Positions 2,140 through 55,669 are shown, numbered from the stretch's first letter. The stretch: 64,000 bases of DNA from Prevotella sp. (GCA_017467535.1 JAFUST010000104.1:5131-69130), one strand, 5' to 3'. Numbers and translations: made by a program. Notes: generated from the sequence alone by a model not told the origin.

Positions 2140-3141
2140 CTACTCTGCTGAGAAGCAGACCACAAGTGGCAAATGGTCGCTGAAGCCGGGAGGCTGATAG
2201 CGATAGCCCTGGAAGGTGCGACGGGGCTTGCGGCCACCATACCGATCGTCATTCTCCAGCAGGAAGGGAGCGTCGTGAATGTAGACGCTGTCCACGCGAG
2301 CAGCCAAACGCGGCGAGGTCAGCACATGGTCGATGGAACGCCACTCGCCTCGGAAGCGATAGGTGCCGCGAGCACCGCCGTGACGGCCACGTGCATCGGC
2401 CGTGACATTGGCCAGCCCCTGTCGATAGAGATACTGCAGCGAGGGGCTGTCGGCATAGTCGTTGAAGTCGCCTGCCACCACCACACGTGCCTGAAAGCCA
2501 AGCGTCTGCATGTGCTCCACCAGCACATGGGCCACCTGAAGTCGGCGGAGCCTTGTCTGCCGTTCGCCGCCAAAGCGGCTGGGGGCATGAACGACATAGA
2601 AATGGAGCGTGTCAACAGAGCCGATGACACCTTTTATATATAATATGTCGCGCGTGGGTCGCTGGTCGGCAGTCAGGGGAACGGCTATGCTCTCATAGCA
2701 CAGCGGAGTGAAGCGACGAGGCAGATAGAGCAGTGCCACATCGAGACCTCGCACGTCAGGCGACGAGGTCATCAGGTACTGATAGCCCGCCCTGCTGAGC
2801 AGCGAACGGCGGGTCAGTGTCCGCAGCACCGAATCGTTCTCCACTTCTACCAGTGCCACCAAGTCAGGCAACGAGTCGCTCGCTGAGAGTATCTCCTGCC
2901 CTATGGCGTTCACCTTTTGCCAGTATCGGCCGCGAGTCCAGTGGCGCGTGCCGTCAGGCAGATATTCCTGGTCTTGCTTCAGCGAATCGTGGCGCGCATC
3001 AAAGAGGTTCTCGCAGTTCAGTTCAACAAGGGTGAAGGACTGCGCTTTTATGAGTGATGAGTGAAAAATGGAAAGTGAAGAGTGAATAGTGAAGAGTGAA
3101 GAATTTGCTGACGCACTCCACAGCAGGACACAGGTCAGCAT
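2140..3141 (-). CDS. Endonuclease/exonuclease/phosphatase family protein, probably secreted
   Basis: N-x-ENLFD, EVEN, GDFND, IDH and GFSDHLP motifs; start ATG 3141 or GTG 3186. Confidence 0.9.
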   Translation of the reverse strand: MLTCVLLWSASANSSLFTIHSSLSIFHSSLIKAQSFTLVELNCENLFDARHDSLKQDQEYLPDGTRHWTRGRYWQKVNAIGQEILSASDSLPDLVALVEVENDSVLRTLTRRSLLSRAGYQYLMTSSPDVRGLDVALLYLPRRFTPLCYESIAVPLTADQRPTRDILYIKGVIGSVDTLHFYVVHAPSRFGGERQTRLRRLQVAHVLVEHMQTLGFQARVVVAGDFNDYADSPSLQYLYRQGLANVTADARGRHGGARGTYRFRGEWRSIDHVLTSPRLAARVDSVYIHDAPFLLENDDRYGGRKPRRTFQGYRYQPPGFSDHLPLVVCFSAE

Positions 3142-3224
3142 AAGTCGCCTCACCCCTACAGCGGTAGCAAATTCTTCACTCTTCACTCTTCACTTATCAC
3201 TCTTCACTCATCACTTATCACTTA
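3050..3224. repeat. Inverted heptamer-repeat element (units AGAGTGA/TAAGTGA/TGAGTGA ending in AGAATTTGCT)
   Basis: gtgaagagtgaagaatttgct (~3090-3110) is inverted against agcaaattcttcactcttcac (~3166-3186); seven 7-mers at 3176-3224. Confidence 0.9.
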
Positions 3225-6929: not shown

Positions 6930-7637
6930 ATGAAAAAGAAAGTAATATTTCTGCTCTCGATGGCCTGTTTCATGCCCTTAGCAGGCCTCTCGCAAAAGGT
7001 AAATCCGCTGGCCTACTACTACGACAGCAAGGAGATGACAACCGTCGAGACAACCAGCATCGAAGATGGCGAGGCCCCGCTGGACGTCACCTTCCGGGCC
7101 AACCCAGAGGATATGGGTGACTATACGCCCTCCTACGAGTGGCACTTCCGCCGACAGAACCAGAACCAGGGCTACGTGGAACTCTTCGTGCGCTATGAGG
7201 AGGAGACACAGTACACCTTTGCCGAGTCAGGCACGTACAACATCGTGCTGAAGACGATACTGGACAACAACGGGGCCGAACTGGACTCCGTGACGCTCAC
7301 CGTCACCATTCCTGAGAGCCGGCTGGAGTTTCCCAACGCCTTTTCGCCCAATGGCGACGGCATCAACGACATCTACCAGGCCAAGGAGGGCTACCGCAGC
7401 ATCGTGAAGTTCCACGCCTACATACTGAACCGCTGGGGCCAGAAACTCTACGAATGGACCGACCCTGCCAGCGGATGGGACGGCACCTATAAGGGCAAGG
7501 ACGTGAAGGACGGCACCTATTTTGTACTGGTGAAGGCCACTGGGGCCGACGGCAGGGAATACAACATCCGCAAGGACGTGAACCTGCTGAGGAAATACAC
7601 ACAAGGTGGAACGACTACAGGCGGTGGCAATGAGTAA
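6930..7637 (+). CDS. PKD-like domain protein with gliding-motility-associated (T9SS type B, CHU_C) C-terminal domain
   Basis: PNAFSPNGDGIND...NRWGQ...GWDG...GTYF motif; signal peptide from ATG 6930. Confidence 0.9.
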   Translation: MKKKVIFLLSMACFMPLAGLSQKVNPLAYYYDSKEMTTVETTSIEDGEAPLDVTFRANPEDMGDYTPSYEWHFRRQNQNQGYVELFVRYEEETQYTFAESGTYNIVLKTILDNNGAELDSVTLTVTIPESRLEFPNAFSPNGDGINDIYQAKEGYRSIVKFHAYILNRWGQKLYEWTDPASGWDGTYKGKDVKDGTYFVLVKATGADGREYNIRKDVNLLRKYTQGGTTTGGGNE

Positions 7638-10548
7638 GGAAGAAGAGAAGATATGCGTCTATGGTGCCCGCGTGCATAACCTGAAGAACATCGATGTGGT
7701 CATCCCCCGTCAGTCGCTCACGGTCATCACGGGCCTGAGCGGCAGCGGCAAGTCGAGCCTGGCCTTCGACACTATTTTTGCCGAGGGGCAACGTCGCTAC
7801 ATAGAGACCTTCTCGGCCTATGCCCGCAACTTTCTGGGTGGCATGGAGCGCCCCGATGTAGACAAGATTACTGGTCTTTCACCAGTCATCAGCATCGAGC
7901 AGAAGACCACCAACAAGAACCCTCGCTCCACCGTAGGCACCACCACCGAGGTCTACGACTACCTGCGACTGCTCTTTGCACGGGCCGGCAAGGCCTACAG
8001 TTACGCCACGGGCGAACCGATGGTGAAATACACCGAGGAGCGCGTGCTGGAGATGATAGAGCACGACTATGCCGGACAGCCCATCTACATCCTGGCGCCA
8101 CTGGTCAGGAGCCGCAAGGGCCACTACCGCGAACTCTTCGAGGCCATGCGCCGCAAGGGCTACCTGACGATGCGCATTGACGGCCAGTTGACGGAGATCA
8201 CACGCGGCATGAAGGTGGACCGCTATAAGAACCACAACATCGAGGTGGTCATCGACAAGGTGGCCTTGCCCCCTAAGTTAGGGGGCGACAGGGGTCTGAA
8301 CAAGGCTTCTTCAGACCCCCAACCCCCTCGCTCGGCTTCGCCGCTTGGCTCGTCCAAGAACTTAGGGGGCTCTGACCGTCTGAAGAAGTCGGTACAGATA
8401 GCCATGAAGGAGGGCGATGGCCTCATCATGATTCTCAACAAGGACAGCGGTGCCCTGAAGCACTTCTCCAAGAGACTGATGTGCCCCACCACCGGCATCT
8501 CCTACAGCGACCCTGCCCCCAACAACTTCTCTTTCAACTCGCCACAAGGTGCCTGTCCGCGATGCAAGGGCCTGGGCATCATCAACGAGATTGACCTGCA
8601 GAAGGTGATGCCCCAGCGCAAACTGAGCATCTACGATGGCGGAATCATTCCTTTAGGGAAACACAAGAACCAACTGATATTCTGGCAGATAGATGCCATA
8701 CTAAAGAAGTATGGTCTCGACATAAAGACCCCCATAGAGCAGATTCCCGACGAGGCGATGACCGAACTGCTGTACGGCTCACTGGAGAACGTACGTATCG
8801 ACAAGGACATCGTCCACACCTCCAGCGACTACTTCGTAGCCTTCGATGGCATCATTAAGTATCTACGCGATTCTGTTGACGGCGATGAGTCGTCGGCCGC
8901 CCAGAAGTGGAGCGACCAGTTCATGGCCGAATGCGAATGTCCTGAGTGCCACGGCCAGCGTCTGAACCGCGAGGCCCTGTCGTACAAGATATGGGACAAG
9001 AACATCGCCCAGTTGGCCTCTATGGACCTGGTCACCCTGCGCCAGTGGCTCGACGAGGTGGAACAGCACCTGGACAACCAGCAGAGTCAGATAGCGGCAG
9101 AGATACTGAAAGAGATACGCACCCGACTGGACTTCCTGCTTGAGGTAGGACTCGACTACCTGGCACTCAACCGTCCGTCAGCCTCGCTCTCCGGCGGCGA
9201 GAGCCAGCGCATCCGACTGGCCACCCAAATCGGTTCGCAACTGGTCAACGTGCTCTACATCCTCGACGAGCCGAGTATCGGCCTGCACCAGCGTGACAAC
9301 GAGCGACTCATCAAGTCGCTGAAGGAACTGCGCGACCTGGGCAACACGGTCATCGTCGTAGAGCACGACAAAGACATGATGCTGGCTGCCGACCACATCA
9401 TCGACATCGGTCCACGCGCCGGACGGAAGGGCGGTGAGGTGGTCTTCATGGGCACGCCGAAAGAGATGCTCGACACCCACACCCTGACGGCAGACTATCT
9501 GAATGGAGCCCAGGCCATCGAGATTCCCAAGGAACGGCGCGAGGGCAACGGCCACAGCATCGTCATACGTGGGGCTAAGGGCAATAATCTGAAGGGGGTA
9601 GACGCCACGTTCCCACTGGGCAAACTCATCGTGGTGACGGGCGTCAGCGGCAGCGGCAAGTCCACGCTGATCAACGAGACGCTGCAGCCCATCCTTTCGC
9701 AGCACTTCTACCGCTCGCTGAAGCGTCCTATGCCCTACGACTCGGTTGAAGGGCTCGAGTATATCGACAAGGTGGTCAACGTGGACCAGTCGCCCCTGGG
9801 CCGCACGCCACGTTCCAACCCTGCCACTTATACTGGCGTATTCTCCGACATCCGCTCGCTGTTCGTCAACCTGCCAGAAGCCAAGATCCGCGGCTACAAG
9901 CCTGGACGCTTCTCATTCAACGTGAAGGGCGGCCGTTGTGAGGCGTGTGGCGGCAATGGCTATAAGACCATCGAGATGAACTTCCTGCCGGACATTCAGG
10001 TGCCCTGCGAGGAGTGCCACGGGCGGCGCTACAACCGTGAGACGCTGGAGGTGCGCTACAAGGGCAAGTCGATCGCCGACGTGCTCGACATGACCATCAA
10101 CCAGGCCGTCGAGTTCTTCGAGAACATACCTGACATCCTCCGCAAGATCAAGACCATTCAGGACGTGGGCCTGGGCTACATCAAACTGGGACAGCCCTCC
10201 ACCACCCTATCAGGCGGCGAGAGCCAGCGCGTGAAACTGGCTGCCGAACTGTCGAAGCGCGACACGGGAAAGACGCTCTACATCCTGGACGAGCCAACCA
10301 CTGGCCTGCACTTCGAGGACATCCGCATCCTGATGCAGGTGCTGCAGAAACTGGTGGACCGAGGCAACACGGTGGTGGTCATCGAGCACAATCTGGACGT
10401 CATCAAACTGGCCGACCACATCATCGACATGGGTCCAGAGGGCGGTCAGCGTGGCGGCACCATCCTCAGCGAGGGCACACCCGAAGCCATCGCCAAGAGC
10501 AAGAAGGGCTATACGCCGCGTTTCCTCAAGGCGGAACTGAAACAATAA
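7630..10548 (+). CDS. uvrA: Excinuclease ABC subunit A, with a repeat-derived in-frame insertion
   Basis: GARVHNLKNI, two Walker A motifs (GLSGSGKS, GVSGSGKS), two LSGGE signatures, zinc-finger CxxC motifs. Confidence 0.98.
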   Translation: MSKEEEKICVYGARVHNLKNIDVVIPRQSLTVITGLSGSGKSSLAFDTIFAEGQRRYIETFSAYARNFLGGMERPDVDKITGLSPVISIEQKTTNKNPRSTVGTTTEVYDYLRLLFARAGKAYSYATGEPMVKYTEERVLEMIEHDYAGQPIYILAPLVRSRKGHYRELFEAMRRKGYLTMRIDGQLTEITRGMKVDRYKNHNIEVVIDKVALPPKLGGDRGLNKASSDPQPPRSASPLGSSKNLGGSDRLKKSVQIAMKEGDGLIMILNKDSGALKHFSKRLMCPTTGISYSDPAPNNFSFNSPQGACPRCKGLGIINEIDLQKVMPQRKLSIYDGGIIPLGKHKNQLIFWQIDAILKKYGLDIKTPIEQIPDEAMTELLYGSLENVRIDKDIVHTSSDYFVAFDGIIKYLRDSVDGDESSAAQKWSDQFMAECECPECHGQRLNREALSYKIWDKNIAQLASMDLVTLRQWLDEVEQHLDNQQSQIAAEILKEIRTRLDFLLEVGLDYLALNRPSASLSGGESQRIRLATQIGSQLVNVLYILDEPSIGLHQRDNERLIKSLKELRDLGNTVIVVEHDKDMMLAADHIIDIGPRAGRKGGEVVFMGTPKEMLDTHTLTADYLNGAQAIEIPKERREGNGHSIVIRGAKGNNLKGVDATFPLGKLIVVTGVSGSGKSTLINETLQPILSQHFYRSLKRPMPYDSVEGLEYIDKVVNVDQSPLGRTPRSNPATYTGVFSDIRSLFVNLPEAKIRGYKPGRFSFNVKGGRCEACGGNGYKTIEMNFLPDIQVPCEECHGRRYNRETLEVRYKGKSIADVLDMTINQAVEFFENIPDILRKIKTIQDVGLGYIKLGQPSTTLSGGESQRVKLAAELSKRDTGKTLYILDEPTTGLHFEDIRILMQVLQKLVDRGNTVVVIEHNLDVIKLADHIIDMGPEGGQRGGTILSEGTPEAIAKSKKGYTPRFLKAELKQ
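8268..8370 (+). repeat. Palindromic REP/MITE-like element in frame inside uvrA (copy 1)
   Basis: 12-bp terminal IR GCCCCCTAAGTT/AACTTAGGGGGC; internal IR GGGGTCTGAA/TTCAGACCCC; near-identical arms at 39354-39453. Confidence 0.92.
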
Positions 10549-22351: not shown

Positions 22352-22562
22352 CAAAAGTACACAATAAATCCGACATGGGCAAGTATTTTGGCATAAAAAA
22401 GCAGAAAAAGCACTTCGAGCCGCAGGACTTAGGACCGTCCAAACCTGGGGTTTGCTTCGTCCAAAGTCCCAGTTTGCTTCGTCCAAAGTCCCAGTTTGCT
22501 TCGTCCAAAAAGCAAAAAAATGACTTTTTGTTTTGTATTGTTCTCACTTATTCGTACCTTTG
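22352..22562. promoter_or_regulatory. Divergent promoters (TACTTTTG minus 22352-22359; TACCTTTG plus 22555-22562)
   Basis: TAnnTTTG matches oriented toward each divergent gene. Confidence 0.65.
22428..22509. repeat. 22-bp tandem repeat GTTTGCTTCGTCCAAAGTCCCA
   Basis: Exact copies 22450-22471 and 22472-22493, a 16-bp partial 22494-22509, and one degenerate unit before. Confidence 0.9.
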
Positions 22563-39002: not shown

Positions 39003-40727
39003 TCAGCGCAGTTTGTAGACCACGGCTCCGCGGGCCTCCAGCGAGACCTCCACGGGCGTGCCCTTGATGAGCACCAGGCTCCGCTCCTCTCCACTGAGCA
39101 GGTCTTCGGCGCGGTAGGCCCGCTCCTGCATCTCCAGGTAGTCGTAGGCGTGGTCGGGGATGCAGAGTTGCATGGTCAGGGGCTGGTCGTCGAAGTTGGC
39201 CACCACGAGCATCACGTCCTTGCCGGCCTTGCGCAGGAAGGCGTACTGGCGGGCATACTGGCGGTTGGCATACATCACGTCGAACATCTGGCCCTGGCTG
39301 ACGCACTTTTCCGTGCGGGCTATGTTAAGCACGCGGCTGTAGACCTCTTGCAAGCCCCCTAAGTTAGGGGGTTGGGGGTCTGAACAAGCGTCCTGACCCT
39401 TGTCCTCGTTCTTGCCCTCGTTCAGACCCCTGTCGCCCCCTAACTTAGGGGGCAAAGTAAGCGTAGGGGGCATAGAGAGCGACCAGTAGTCGAAGATGGT
39501 GGTGCGGCCGTCGCGACCGCTGAAGCCCTCGGCGTCCATGCCACGCTCGCCCCACTCCTGTCCGAAGTAGAGCATGAAGGGGCCCTTCTGCATGAGTGCG
39601 CTGACCACCAGTCCGGGCACGCCTTTCTCGCCTGAGCCGGCAAAGAAGTCGCTGGCCAGTCGCTGCTCGTCGTGGTTCTCCAGGAAGTAGAGCATGTGGT
39701 CGCGTATGTCATCGGTCTGCTGCCAGGCCTGGGTGATGGCCTCCGAGGTACGGCGGTGGCAGATGACGTCGCGCATGGCGTCGTACATGCCCACCTTGTC
39801 GTACAGGTAGTCGAAGCCCGAGGCGATGTAGCGGCGATACTCGGCGGGGTTGTACACCTCGCCGATGAAGCGCACCTCAGGGTAGGCCTCGCGCACGCGG
39901 GCCGTGGCCCATGCCCAGAACTCGGCTGGCACCATCTCGGCCATGTCGCAGCGGAAGGCGTCCACGCCCTTCTGGGCCCAGAAGAGCAGTATGTGGAGCA
40001 TCTTGGTCCACGTGTCGGGCGTGGGCTGGAAGTGGCCCACGTGGCCGGCATAGTAGTCGACGCCGTAGTTCAACTTGACGGTCTCATACCAGTCGTTCCG
40101 TCCGGGCGCGTTGTGGAAACAGTCGTTGCCCGTGGCCTTGGCGGGCGTCTCCGTATATGGCTCACGCTCACCATGATAGAGGTCGAAGTATGGCGTAAAG
40201 GTTTGGCCGGGACAGTAGTAGAAGTTGTTCTTCTGCGGGTCGAATCCCACCTCGGGGTTGTCGTCCTCGCCCAGGTCGCGCACGCCCTCGGGTCGGGCCA
40301 CCGAGTGGTACTGACGGGCCACGTGGTTGGGCACGAAGTCGATGACCACCTTCAGGCCGGCACGATGGGTGCGGCTGACGAGGCGCTCGAACTCCTGCAT
40401 GCGCTGCTCCACGTCTTCGGCCAGGTCGGGGTCCACGTCGTAGTAGTCCACGATGGCGTAGGGCGATCCGGCGCGTCCCTTCACCACGGCGGGGTGCTGG
40501 CGTGGCAGGCCGTAGCGGGTGTAGTCGGTGGTGGTGGCGTGGCGGATGATGCCTGTGTACCACACGTGGCTGACGCCCATCTGGCGTATCTGGCGGAGCA
40601 CCTTGGGAGTGAAGTGGTTCAGTTTGCCGCAGCCGTTGTCCTCGATGCTGCCGTTGGGGATACGCGCCGTACAGTTGTTACCGTACAGGCGCGTGAAAAT
40701 CTGGTAGATGACAATCTTGTCGCTCAT
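39003..40727 (-). CDS. GH13 alpha-amylase family protein, with a repeat-derived in-frame insertion
   Basis: IDFVPNH, DAFRCDMA, FIGEVY and FLENHD conserved regions. Confidence 0.92.
   Translation of the reverse strand: MSDKIVIYQIFTRLYGNNCTARIPNGSIEDNGCGKLNHFTPKVLRQIRQMGVSHVWYTGIIRHATTTDYTRYGLPRQHPAVVKGRAGSPYAIVDYYDVDPDLAEDVEQRMQEFERLVSRTHRAGLKVVIDFVPNHVARQYHSVARPEGVRDLGEDDNPEVGFDPQKNNFYYCPGQTFTPYFDLYHGEREPYTETPAKATGNDCFHNAPGRNDWYETVKLNYGVDYYAGHVGHFQPTPDTWTKMLHILLFWAQKGVDAFRCDMAEMVPAEFWAWATARVREAYPEVRFIGEVYNPAEYRRYIASGFDYLYDKVGMYDAMRDVICHRRTSEAITQAWQQTDDIRDHMLYFLENHDEQRLASDFFAGSGEKGVPGLVVSALMQKGPFMLYFGQEWGERGMDAEGFSGRDGRTTIFDYWSLSMPPTLTLPPKLGGDRGLNEGKNEDKGQDACSDPQPPNLGGLQEVYSRVLNIARTEKCVSQGQMFDVMYANRQYARQYAFLRKAGKDVMLVVANFDDQPLTMQLCIPDHAYDYLEMQERAYRAEDLLSGEERSLVLIKGTPVEVSLEARGAVVYKLR
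39354..39453 (-). repeat. Palindromic REP/MITE-like element in frame inside the GH13 gene (copy 2)
   Basis: Same arms as 8268-8370, longer central loop, no 30-bp nested insert. Confidence 0.92.
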
Positions 40728-47241: not shown

Positions 47242-47303
47242 GGGTTTGCACGCTCCAAACCCTGGGTTTGCTCCGTGCGGACTGCCGCTTTGAACGGTGC
47301 AAA
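47242..47303. repeat. Degenerate 22-bp periodic repeat
   Basis: gggtttgcacgctccaaaccct/gggtttgctccgtgcggactgc/cgctttgaacggtgcaaa. Confidence 0.65.
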
Positions 47304-47913: not shown

Positions 47914-47990
47914 GGAGTGATGAGTGATGAGTGATAAGTGGGACGCGAAACCGCTCATCACTTTTCACTCATCACTTATCACTTCTTCAC
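47914..47990. repeat. Inverted heptamer-repeat hairpin between convergent genes
   Basis: GAGTGAT/AAGTG units, a short spacer, then CTCATCA/CTTATCA/CTTTTCA units; same unit family as 3050-3224. Confidence 0.85.
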
Positions 47991-52854: not shown

Positions 52855-53844
52855 TTATACTTGTCGCACAGAATATTTTCCAATGTCCTTCATTCCGTTC
52901 AGGAAAGCCTGCGCATCCATGCGTTTCTTGCCGGCCAGTTGCAGTTCGTCCACCTGCAGCAAACCGTCGGCACAAGAGACCAGCAGATGCCGTCCCCTGA
53001 CGACGAGGCTGCCCGCCCCACCCTGCGCTGCCTCCTGCGTCTTGGTGGTGCGGAACACCTTGAGCACGGTCTCGCGCCCGTTCTCGTCGACGAGCGTCGT
53101 CCAGGCACCCGGATAGGGCGACAGGCCGCGCACGAAGTCGTAGACGCGCTTGGCCGGCTGCGTCCAGTCTATCTGGCAGGTCTCCTTGAAAATCTTGGGG
53201 GCAGGTTTCAACTGAAGAGTGACACTTGACGGATGACAGTTGTCCTGCGAGACGGTCTCGGGATGGCCGCCGGAGGCGATGATCTTCCCCAGCGTGCTCA
53301 GGCAGATCCGGGCTCCCAGATGCATCAGTCCGTCGTAGACGTATTCCACGTCGGCCTCGTCGGGAATGGCGAAGGGCATCTGCTCGATGATGCGGCCCGT
53401 GTCTATATCGTGGTCGAGGAAGAAGGTGGTCACGCCCGTCTCCGTCTCGCCGTTGATGACGGCCCAGTTGATGGGCGCCGCCCCGCGATACTGCGGCAGC
53501 AAGGCCGCATGGACATTGAACGTGCCGTATTCAGGCATGGCCCACACCACCTCGGGCAGCATGCGGAAGGCCACCACCACCTGGAGGTTGGCCCGATAGG
53601 CGCGCAGTTGCTCCACGAAGGCCGGGTCTTTCATCTTCTCTGGCTGAAGCACCGGCAGCCCCTGCTCCAATGCATACTGCTTGACGGCCGAGGGCTGCAG
53701 CACGGAGCCGTGACGGCCCACGGGCTTGTCGGGCTGGGTGACCACGGCCACCACACGATACTGATTCTCCACCAGAGCCTTCAGCGTCTCCACCGCAAAC
53801 TCGGGCGTTCCCATAAACACGATGCGCAAATCTTCCTTATTCAT
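52855..53844 (-). CDS. fmt: Methionyl-tRNA formyltransferase
   Basis: IVFMGTPEFA, VVTQPD, NVHAALLPQYRGAAPINWA. Confidence 0.96.
   Translation of the reverse strand: MNKEDLRIVFMGTPEFAVETLKALVENQYRVVAVVTQPDKPVGRHGSVLQPSAVKQYALEQGLPVLQPEKMKDPAFVEQLRAYRANLQVVVAFRMLPEVVWAMPEYGTFNVHAALLPQYRGAAPINWAVINGETETGVTTFFLDHDIDTGRIIEQMPFAIPDEADVEYVYDGLMHLGARICLSTLGKIIASGGHPETVSQDNCHPSSVTLQLKPAPKIFKETCQIDWTQPAKRVYDFVRGLSPYPGAWTTLVDENGRETVLKVFRTTKTQEAAQGGAGSLVVRGRHLLVSCADGLLQVDELQLAGKKRMDAQAFLNGMKDIGKYSVRQV
53213..53241. repeat. Heptamer repeat inside fmt
   Basis: TGAAGAG TGACACT TGACGGA TGACAGT on plus; encodes NCHPSSVTLQ on the coding strand. Confidence 0.6.
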
Positions 53845-53860
53845 CTTCAATCTTCAATTT

Positions 53861-55669
53861 TCAATCCTTACTCATGTCCGCCACCATCTTGCGATACTGC
53901 GTGTACATGCGCTGACGCGAGATGTAGCCCCTCAAGTGGCGGTCTTTGTCGACCACGGGCAGATAGTCGGCATGAGTCCGCTCAAATGTCTTCACTACAT
54001 CGGTCATCTGGAGCGAGTCGCCAAGCGTGGCCTCCGGCTCCTGCATGAGTTGGGTGGCCGTGAAGTGGTGATAGAGTTCGATGCGAAACACCACATGGCG
54101 TATTTTCGTGATGTCAATCTCTCCCAGAAGCACGCCCCCGGCATCGAGCACAGGAATGATGCTGCTGCGCGAACGGCTGATCTTGCGCACAATCTCGCCC
54201 AGTTCGGTATCGGGCTCCACGGGCAGATAGTCGCGGTCGATGACGCTGTCGAGTTGCATCAACGTGAGCACGGCATGATCGGTATGATGGGTGATGAGTT
54301 GTCCTTCCTTTGCCAGGCGCGAGCCATAGATGCTGTGCGGTTCGAAGAGGATGATGGTCAGATAGGAGGAAACCGATACTATCATCAGCGGCAGGAACAG
54401 GTCGTAGCCACCCGTCAGTTCGGCTATCAGGAAGATGCCCGTCAGCGGCGCATGCATCACGCCCGACATCACGCCGGCCATGCCCATCAGGGCGAAGTTC
54501 TTCTCGGGCACGTGGACGCCCACCTGATACTGGTTCCACAACCGCGAGAACAGGAAGCCGCTGAAGCAGCCGATGAACAACGAGGGGGCAAACGTACCGC
54601 CACAACCGCCTCCGCCGTTGGTGGCTGAGGTGGCAAAGACCTTGGTGAGCAGCACCAGCGCCACATAGGGTATGAGCATCTGCGCCTGACCGGAGAAGAG
54701 CGAGTTGTCCAGTATCCTGTTCGTGGTAGCCTCGTCGCCGCTGAGCAAGGCGTTGATGGAGTTGTAGCCTTCGCCGAAGAGCGACGGGAAGAAGAAGATA
54801 AGCACACTCAGCAGCGAACCGCCCATGACGAGCCTCACGTAGGGCTTGTCCTTGAAGCGGGCGAAGATGTCCTCGCAGAAACCCATCGTACGGATAAAGT
54901 AGAGGCTGACCAACCCGCAGAAGATGCCCAGCAGCACGCAGGCAGGCACACGCTCTACCGTCCACTGGTCCTGCAACTCGAAGGTGAACAACACAGCATC
55001 ACCACTAAAAATATAGGTGAAGCAGGTGGCCGTCACACACGAGACGAGGATGGGCAGCAGCGAGGCCATCGTCAGGTCGATCATCAGCACCTCGAGCGTG
55101 AAGACGAGACCGGCAATGGGCGCCTTGAAGATGCCGGCAATGGCACCGGCAGCACCACAGCCGATGAGCAGCATCAGCGTGCGGCTGTTCAGTTTGAAGA
55201 GTTTGCCCAGATTCGAGCCTATGGCCGAACCCGTCAGCACGATAGGTGCCTCGGCACCCACAGAACCGCCAAAGCCGATGGTGATGGCCGAGGCTATGAC
55301 GGAGGACCAGGTGTTGTGCGACTTCAGCCGCGAGCGCTTCTGGCTGATGGCATAGAGGATGCGCGTGATGCCGTGGGAGATGTTGTCCTTGACCACATAG
55401 CGCACGAAGAGCGAGGTGAGATAGATGCCCACCACGGGGTAGACCAGGTAGAGCCAGTTATAGGTGGAGGCATCAAACGAACTGGTGAGCAGGGCGACAA
55501 TCTGGTTGATGATCCAGTGCAGCACGAAGGCGGCCACGGCGGAGAAAAGGCCCACAAAGAAAGCCAGTATCAGCACGAACATACGTTCGCTGATATGCGT
55601 CTCGCGCCATTCGTTCAGACGCGAGAACCATGATGCCGTTGCCGTAGAGTCGATGGTTGCCTCAGCCAT
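53861..55669 (-). CDS. ClC chloride channel/antiporter with C-terminal CBS domains
   Basis: GGSVGAEAP, GIFKAPIAG, GGTFAPSL, HAPLTG. Confidence 0.92.
   Translation of the reverse strand: MAEATIDSTATASWFSRLNEWRETHISERMFVLILAFFVGLFSAVAAFVLHWIINQIVALLTSSFDASTYNWLYLVYPVVGIYLTSLFVRYVVKDNISHGITRILYAISQKRSRLKSHNTWSSVIASAITIGFGGSVGAEAPIVLTGSAIGSNLGKLFKLNSRTLMLLIGCGAAGAIAGIFKAPIAGLVFTLEVLMIDLTMASLLPILVSCVTATCFTYIFSGDAVLFTFELQDQWTVERVPACVLLGIFCGLVSLYFIRTMGFCEDIFARFKDKPYVRLVMGGSLLSVLIFFFPSLFGEGYNSINALLSGDEATTNRILDNSLFSGQAQMLIPYVALVLLTKVFATSATNGGGGCGGTFAPSLFIGCFSGFLFSRLWNQYQVGVHVPEKNFALMGMAGVMSGVMHAPLTGIFLIAELTGGYDLFLPLMIVSVSSYLTIILFEPHSIYGSRLAKEGQLITHHTDHAVLTLMQLDSVIDRDYLPVEPDTELGEIVRKISRSRSSIIPVLDAGGVLLGEIDITKIRHVVFRIELYHHFTATQLMQEPEATLGDSLQMTDVVKTFERTHADYLPVVDKDRHLRGYISRQRMYTQYRKMVADMSKD

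Follow-up and report, generated by a model that had tools for sequence, protein, structure and literature searches.

Palindromic inserts in uvrA and a GH13 gene of Prevotella sp. as putative short members of a repeat family with a DUF559 nuclease partner

A 64,000-nucleotide stretch of DNA from Prevotella sp. (GCA_017467535.1, JAFUST010000104.1:5131-69130), referred to here as the window, carries a palindromic element of about 100 bp in frame within two unrelated genes, one encoding UvrA and the other an alpha-amylase family protein of glycoside hydrolase family 13 (GH13). This raises the question of where the element comes from and what could place it in an open reading frame (ORF). A first-pass annotation had proposed a Prevotella family resembling REPINs (doublets of repetitive extragenic palindromes, REPs) or MITEs (transposable elements of the miniature inverted-repeat type), which adds loops to proteins. 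Our reading, to which we assign a probability of roughly 0.6, is that both inserts belong to a Prevotella repeat family as its short members without a gene, and that both these and longer, gene-bearing members are likely mobilised by a cognate DUF559 (Vsr-like) nuclease.

Copies within and between genes

In the assembly which holds both inserts (G000; 2.39 Mb, 79% complete) we found 43 loci of the family by BLAST, 34 of which had both arms. The exact arm pattern was present in 48 of 400 genomes of the genus and in 0 of 300 other genomes sampled across the order, and viral contigs, searched for phage carriage, gave 0 arm matches. The family is real, multi-copy and mobile in origin, and the proposal of a multi-copy, genus-restricted palindromic family adding loops to proteins agrees with the approximately 43 copies in G000 and with the existence of empty alleles. 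It should be noted that loop addition holds for the 4 two-armed copies which are protein-internal; the other 30 lie at gene junctions, which had been missed, as had the DUF559 cassette outside the window.

The protein-internal copies in G000 are in uvrA, the GH13 gene, an ABC-F-type ATPase gene (contig C53) and a 997-aa ORF (C8), and one single arm was found within a protein on C74. Seven further internal copies from other genomes (L010-L016), chosen for having the D arm and not for their orientation, were located in alanyl-tRNA synthetase, a TonB-dependent receptor, a LytTR regulator, an ABC ATPase, VapE-like and DUF3987 proteins and one protein with no Pfam match at the threshold used. This D arm, which is the rarer type, was present in 4/4 protein-internal G000 copies vs 3/30 junction copies (P = 0.0008), and the interiors of the protein-internal copies were GC-richer or very short. 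It was at the 5′ end in all 4 internal G000 copies and in all 7 of L010-L016, though the reverse reading is also free of stop codons. An insert-peptide profile search returned 22 proteins; the profile is short and several matches look like chimeric or spurious ORFs, and it was not used as a census.

Each terminal palindrome has just one of three frames without stop codons, and therefore any copy read end to end is 3n + 1 long between its outer G and C; the four protein-internal G000 copies are 100, 76, 103 and 100 bp, all 3n + 1. This explains the 3n + 1 length which had been taken as evidence of a 2-nt duplication restoring the frame. Among the 34 two-armed copies a 2-nt flank match was found in 5 (5.2 by shuffling), at chance level, and the duplication model is therefore unsupported; looking for longer target-site duplications, we found a 3-nt direct match in 2/34 (shuffled mean 2.9). 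The TT reported before both copies flanks only the amylase copy on either side; after the uvrA copy the sequence is TC.

At gene junctions, 29 of the 30 G000 copies were between co-directional genes (background 67-76%), the upstream stop codon ended -10 to +14 nt from the element start in 25/30 and it was supplied by the arm itself in 14/30; these counts are approximate, with gene positions taken from our own codon-score caller.

Full-length cassettes and the DUF559 nuclease

Long copies from two genomes of the genus have a DUF559 ORF between the arms, which is intact (128 aa) in L003 and broken in L002 and L005. When metagenome contigs were scanned for arms 400-430 nt apart we obtained 17 matches: 12 with a DUF559 ORF (two being the same site), 4 compound repeats without DUF559 and 1 chance match. 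Arms and ORF together take up the whole cassette, which measures about 450-500 bp. The cassette nuclease matches Pfam DUF559 with E = 8e-33 and has 3hrl as its only solved relative by sequence (E = 3e-18). On comparison of the L003 protein to the 400 genus genomes, each of the 14 best matches was flanked, on one side or both, by these arms or by a close variant of them.

In a maximum-likelihood tree of 56 DUF559 proteins, all 26 with these arms or close variants fell on one side of a branch with support of 98/97; none of the other 30 have these arms and most have other hairpin arms. For this tree 8 of 64 DUF559 rows (duplicates, fragments) were dropped, and three rows with variant arms were assigned to the family by eye. 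The motifs FRxQHG and ExDGxxH were invariant in 25/25 clade nucleases and the Asp of DFYCP was conserved in 24/25. Ratios of nonsynonymous to synonymous substitution (dN/dS) ranged from 0.06 to 0.30 (median 0.086; 6 of 300 pairs unsaturated), and by this measure the clade evolves under purifying selection. Comparing genomes by hand, we found the clade nuclease in 11 of 16 genomes with at least 10 arm matches, in 4 of 32 genomes where matches were fewer and in 1 of 352 genomes lacking them.

Full cassettes were co-oriented with both neighbouring genes in 20 of 22 scorable cases, with a stop at the left arm; 5 of 27 could not be scored because an arm was unmatched or cut off, and several cassettes represent the same site in related genomes. 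Junction anatomy was alike in full cassettes and short copies. At the era-der junction, where L026 has a full cassette and L005 an internally deleted one at the same site, a full cassette has decayed to a short one. At ilvD-ilvB a cassette occupies the place of the end of ilvD (last codons and stop), of the spacer and of the initial codons of ilvB, and the new ilvB start overlaps the stop of the nuclease gene.

One full cassette (L052:129-1325) continues in frame, across both arms, into a HAD-like hydrolase (named from sequence reading); in its nuclease the conserved Asp is replaced by Gly, and this is the sole clade member without that Asp. G000 has three other DUF559 genes (C81:24224-24538, C88:14620-14937 and C4:10854-11165), each outside the clade and with its own 35-50-bp hairpin arms; the arms of these three families were found inside proteins in 3/6, 7/11 and 15/39 cases. 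The C81 gene shares a reading frame with a guanylate-kinase-like gene, giving an ORF of 412 aa.

Empty alleles and the copies in the window

The search for empty sites in orthologues, suggested by the first-pass annotation, found close ones without the element for both genes (UvrA 97% identical, GH13 94%). P0006, a UvrA in the same 90% cluster as that of the window (923/947 identical), has a 14-aa loop and no element; P0004 and P0005, both 98% identical, have the element without a nested 30-mer which is present in the window copy. This 30-mer is therefore a later arrival. NCBI lists a 98%-identical UvrA under Prevotella sp., from which the host was taken to be a Prevotella. A contig from run X6, which gives the DNA of the 14-aa loop, has 37 other bases in place of 112 window bases and a different left flank, and the uvrA event was therefore not a clean insertion. 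The corresponding GH13 segment was 12 aa in 114 of 122 proteins, 15-17 aa in 5 and 47 aa in 3, the last confined to the window's own cluster; in the nearest empty forms the residues on both sides of the element differ. At the three sites with empty comparators (uvrA, GH13 and ilvD-ilvB) the net result is that host DNA was replaced, in keeping with an earlier caveat that host residues may have been lost. The sequences show that shared arms, the pairing of arm and enzyme in one clade, co-orientation with host transcription and net replacement at three sites are properties of this family.

In UvrA the insert is in the UvrB-interaction domain, as predicted, at a short variable loop which is a short connection in solved UvrA. 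This loop measured 8-27 aa in 30 more distant genomes, where by eye we saw pieces of this family in L061 and L067 and other palindrome families in approximately 5. Across genomes, remnants of several palindrome families were also seen by eye at the uvrA loop (L061-L090) and the ilvD-ilvB junction (L133-L162). The overall picture suggests that the same tolerant sites are reused repeatedly by different palindrome families.

The coordinates, shared frame and shared orientation given for the two copies (Table 1) were correct, and both host ORFs are open with catalytic motifs intact: both Walker A, both LSGGE and both DEP-x-x-GLH motifs and the zinc-finger cysteines in UvrA, and FRCDMAE, IGEVY and LENHDE in GH13. 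G000 has a second uvrA, 44% identical, on contig C20. The left arms of the two copies match over 40 nt (39/40 identical), and few inverted pairs of the window are as long. Terminal palindromes are present as described, except that the right one of the uvrA copy is split by the nested insert. The uvrA copy as DNA had a folding z of -5.7 and the GH13 copy as RNA one of -7.8, with 0/200 shuffles equally good in either case. An Rfam scan of the uvrA copy returned 7 weak matches, all far below the gathering score, and a structured-RNA family was rejected on this basis. Long pieces of window DNA were found with 0-1 differences in two gut-metagenome runs (X1 and X2).

Table 1. Positions of the two palindromic elements, their parts and their host genes in the window
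Feature	Position	Strand	Remarks
uvrA, host gene	7630..10548	+	972 aa; all checked motifs intact
Short two-armed element in uvrA	8268..8370	+	103 bp; residues about 213-247 of 972-aa UvrA
uvrA copy, 5′ arm, D type	8268..8301	+	terminal palindrome, GACA spacer, inner stem GGGGTCTGAAC
uvrA copy, inner loop	8302..8309	+	8 nt; DUF559 gene occupies this position in full-length relatives
uvrA copy, 3′ arm, S type	8310..8370	+	terminal palindrome interrupted
Nested hairpin insert in right palindrome of uvrA copy	8329..8358	+	30 bp (10 codons)
GH13 alpha-amylase family host gene	39003..40727	-	574 aa; single copy in assembly; catalytic motifs intact
Short two-armed element in GH13 gene	39354..39453	-	100 bp; residues 425-458, directly after TTIFDYW
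GH13 copy, 5′ arm, D type	39420..39453	-	identical to 5′ arm of uvrA copy
GH13 copy, 3′ arm, S type	39354..39385	-	

The nested 30-bp hairpin was also found at the same arm position at other loci (G000 C103:151, C28:6732 and C38:38035; L006) and, without arms, within a folK-like ORF (G000 C10:5866). It is either a second tiny mobile repeat or a product of exchange between arms. Three further resources for GH13 were of no use: the best genus matches for a DNA-level empty site were 80% identical and too distant, the AlphaFold model had a mean predicted local distance difference test (pLDDT) score of 52, with the insert region and much of the core below 50, and the C-terminal part had no solved relative by sequence. 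Elsewhere the window has heptamer-type tandem repeats (TCACTTA/TCACTCA-like) arranged as inverted pairs at 3050-3223, 47916-47984 and 53836-53866, forming a second short repeat family. An AT-rich core flanked by a 40-bp inverted repeat lies at 1733-1920, and a 22-bp tandem repeat at 22436-22509 has a related copy at 47252-47281.

Mechanism, alternatives and meaning

HUH enzymes nick at REPs. In the family described here the DUF559 nuclease would recognise its own arm hairpin and nick or cut at or near the arms, after which a released or primed copy would be patched into the break by host repair with the loss of tens of host bases. Copies would survive only where harmless, in tolerant loops or at stop-start junctions. 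In a tolerant loop the element would be read in its single stop-free frame as a Pro/Gly-rich linker, as in uvrA and GH13; between co-transcribed genes the left arm would give the upstream gene its stop and the inner spacer could give the downstream gene its start. Compensated changes within single arms were found at pair 8/12 in 6/57 and 4/88 and at pair 2/18 in 1/57 and 8/88, and in 4/4 two-armed copies the compensated change was in one arm only; because these changes are within one arm and not across two, each terminal palindrome is probably maintained as its own hairpin. We infer that the enzyme is active, recognises arm hairpins and drives insertion.

Several observations weigh against this reading. 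We found no nuclease of the clade in 5 of the 16 arm-rich genomes, including G229 (a single contig, 99% complete), or in G000, an assembly which is 79% complete. Sampling for the tree started from a single arm-flanked protein and took in 12 rows retrieved through their arms, and related genomes do not count as independent observations. The empty alleles come from sister lineages rather than the same strain, with comparator proteins 94-97% identical or more distant, and precise insertion followed by later deletion would also fit. The right arm was in frame with the downstream gene at 13/30 G000 junctions, which is not significant (P = 0.17); in approximately 8 of these 13 the only nearby Met, by eye, is inside the element, and the arm would be an N-terminal extension. 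Each compensated pair may represent one inherited event. Finally, the inner loops are AT-rich and nearly all unique (the 34 copies include 1 identical pair), which is as compatible with decay in place as with mobility.

Decay in place is the basis of the main alternative, under which only the full cassette moves and a short copy is the immobile remainder after deletion of the nuclease gene. The full and internally deleted cassettes at era-der, the common junction anatomy of full and short copies, the near-unique inner loops and the existence of solo palindromes (three in G000 and another in the uvrA loop of L061) are all expected if short copies are relics. This is less easily reconciled with the identical inner loop of two short copies at unrelated genes (C4:23840 and C42:22580), the inner-end sequence common to the C8 and GH13 copies or the four protein-internal copies with a rarer D arm and GC-richer or very short interiors, which suggest a self-copying sub-lineage, and we consider it unlikely that all short copies arose in this way. 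A still less probable explanation makes the nuclease a passenger, or a gene retained for its benefit to the host, with the arms being spread by host recombination or gene conversion and retained as RNA hairpins which affect operon mRNA. Strong predicted hairpins and the position of elements between co-transcribed genes are consistent with this, and arm variants which recur one arm at a time and a nested 30-mer which recurs at one position fit arm exchange; arms also persist in nuclease-free genomes. It does not, however, account for the separate nuclease clade of each arm family, for the many unrelated sites that cassettes occupy or for entry into new sites without prior homology.

The proposed resemblance to REPINs is in part borne out by published systems. 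GTAG/CGTC REP dimers are described as inverted and mostly extragenic, with some in ORFs, where they account for 20-30 aa, and with uvrA among their targets (Di Nocera et al. 2013, PMC3733652); the enzyme gene of RAYT/TIRYT systems (REP-associated and terminal inverted repeat-associated tyrosine transposases) is small and flanked by the same REP repeats (PMC3733652), and endonucleases are mentioned once in the available text of that paper, regarding IS elements. Rickettsia palindromic elements (RPEs), of about 100-150 bp, are reported in frame in unrelated proteins (PMC10969869). Because in-frame REP dimers, including those in uvrA, and RPEs have been published, the in-frame inserts in the window are a new instance of a known phenomenon. 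The family is like REPINs in consisting of inverted doublets of short palindromes, multi-copy and mostly extragenic (30/34 at gene junctions), and G000, like 9 of 10 arm-rich genomes, has Y1_Tnp genes, in favour of doublets moved in trans by a RAYT/HUH (IS200-type TnpA) transposase. Against such a mobiliser, which had been suggested previously, arms were absent within about 1.5 kb of all 14 Y1_Tnp loci in G000 and 10 arm-rich genomes (a contig edge cuts some of these loci short), neither a GTAG nor a CGTC tag was seen by eye in the TAA/TTA-rich outer flanks of the 34 copies, and the gene between the arms is a DUF559 PD-(D/E)XK nuclease rather than a tyrosine (HUH) transposase, with no TnpA in the 17 long copies (400-430-nt interiors only). 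Copies here also replace stop and start regions. A classical REPIN is thus largely refuted and very improbable. The one Y1_Tnp match in G000, a weak N-terminal match in a 428-aa protein with an internal (EVHG)x5 repeat and a C-terminal region without assignment (C108:19012-20313, L001), was rejected as a parent, having no arms nearby.

Other known systems share some features with the family. Like RPEs, it inserts in frame into unrelated proteins (4 in G000 and 7 other hosts), but only 4/34 two-armed copies are protein-internal, the middle of the peptide is variable and there is a cognate nuclease cassette, whereas the available text of PMC10969869 names no mobilising gene for RPEs. It resembles MITEs, as outlined in the same source, in having terminal inverted repeats, a short non-autonomous form without the enzyme gene and kinship by internal deletion to a longer element (PMC10969869); it differs in that no target-site duplication is present and the ends are ragged by a few bases. 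A longer partner with the same ends does exist and encodes DUF559, with no DDE/HUH transposase in the 400-430-nt interiors that an unbiased scan covered. The family behaves like a REPIN or MITE yet lacks tested features of both, namely the tag, the RAYT partner and the duplication. I-Bth0305I is a Vsr-like EDxHD homing endonuclease whose Vsr fold is described as driving the mobility of its own intron (PMC3239194), and DUF559 has been grouped with Vsr, I-Bth0305I, 3hrl and 3r3p (PMC3424549). The clade nuclease belongs to the same group and has the conserved Asp and His, but it consists of the catalytic domain only (about 120-130 aa) without an N-terminal DNA-binding region, its cassette is bounded by hairpin arms and is not an intron or intein, and many unrelated sites are occupied, arguing against homing to one fixed allele. 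A literature search aimed at a link between nuclease and repeat found no mobile family of DUF559 and hairpin arms; the supplementary ORF lists of PMC3733652 could bear on this.

We tentatively suggest, at a little short of even odds, that this is a class of bacterial mobile element in which a bare Vsr-like nuclease is matched to its own hairpin ends and inserts co-directionally, overwriting host DNA and being rendered harmless by donated stops, starts and Pro/Gly loops, with non-autonomous derivatives remodelling protein loops and termini across the genus and rival arm-enzyme families reusing its sites. Taken alone, the two copies in the window are ordinary tolerated loop insertions. In the wider family, a nuclease of 128 aa and an arm of 32 bp track each other across one clade, forming a pair open to testing. 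If the enzyme does move the element, a function could be assigned to a PD-(D/E)XK nuclease that has had none, a route of mobility without DDE, HUH or serine/tyrosine recombinases would be open to study, and there would be an explanation for the Pro/Gly loops, unusual N-termini and mistaken start annotations that recur in Prevotella proteins.

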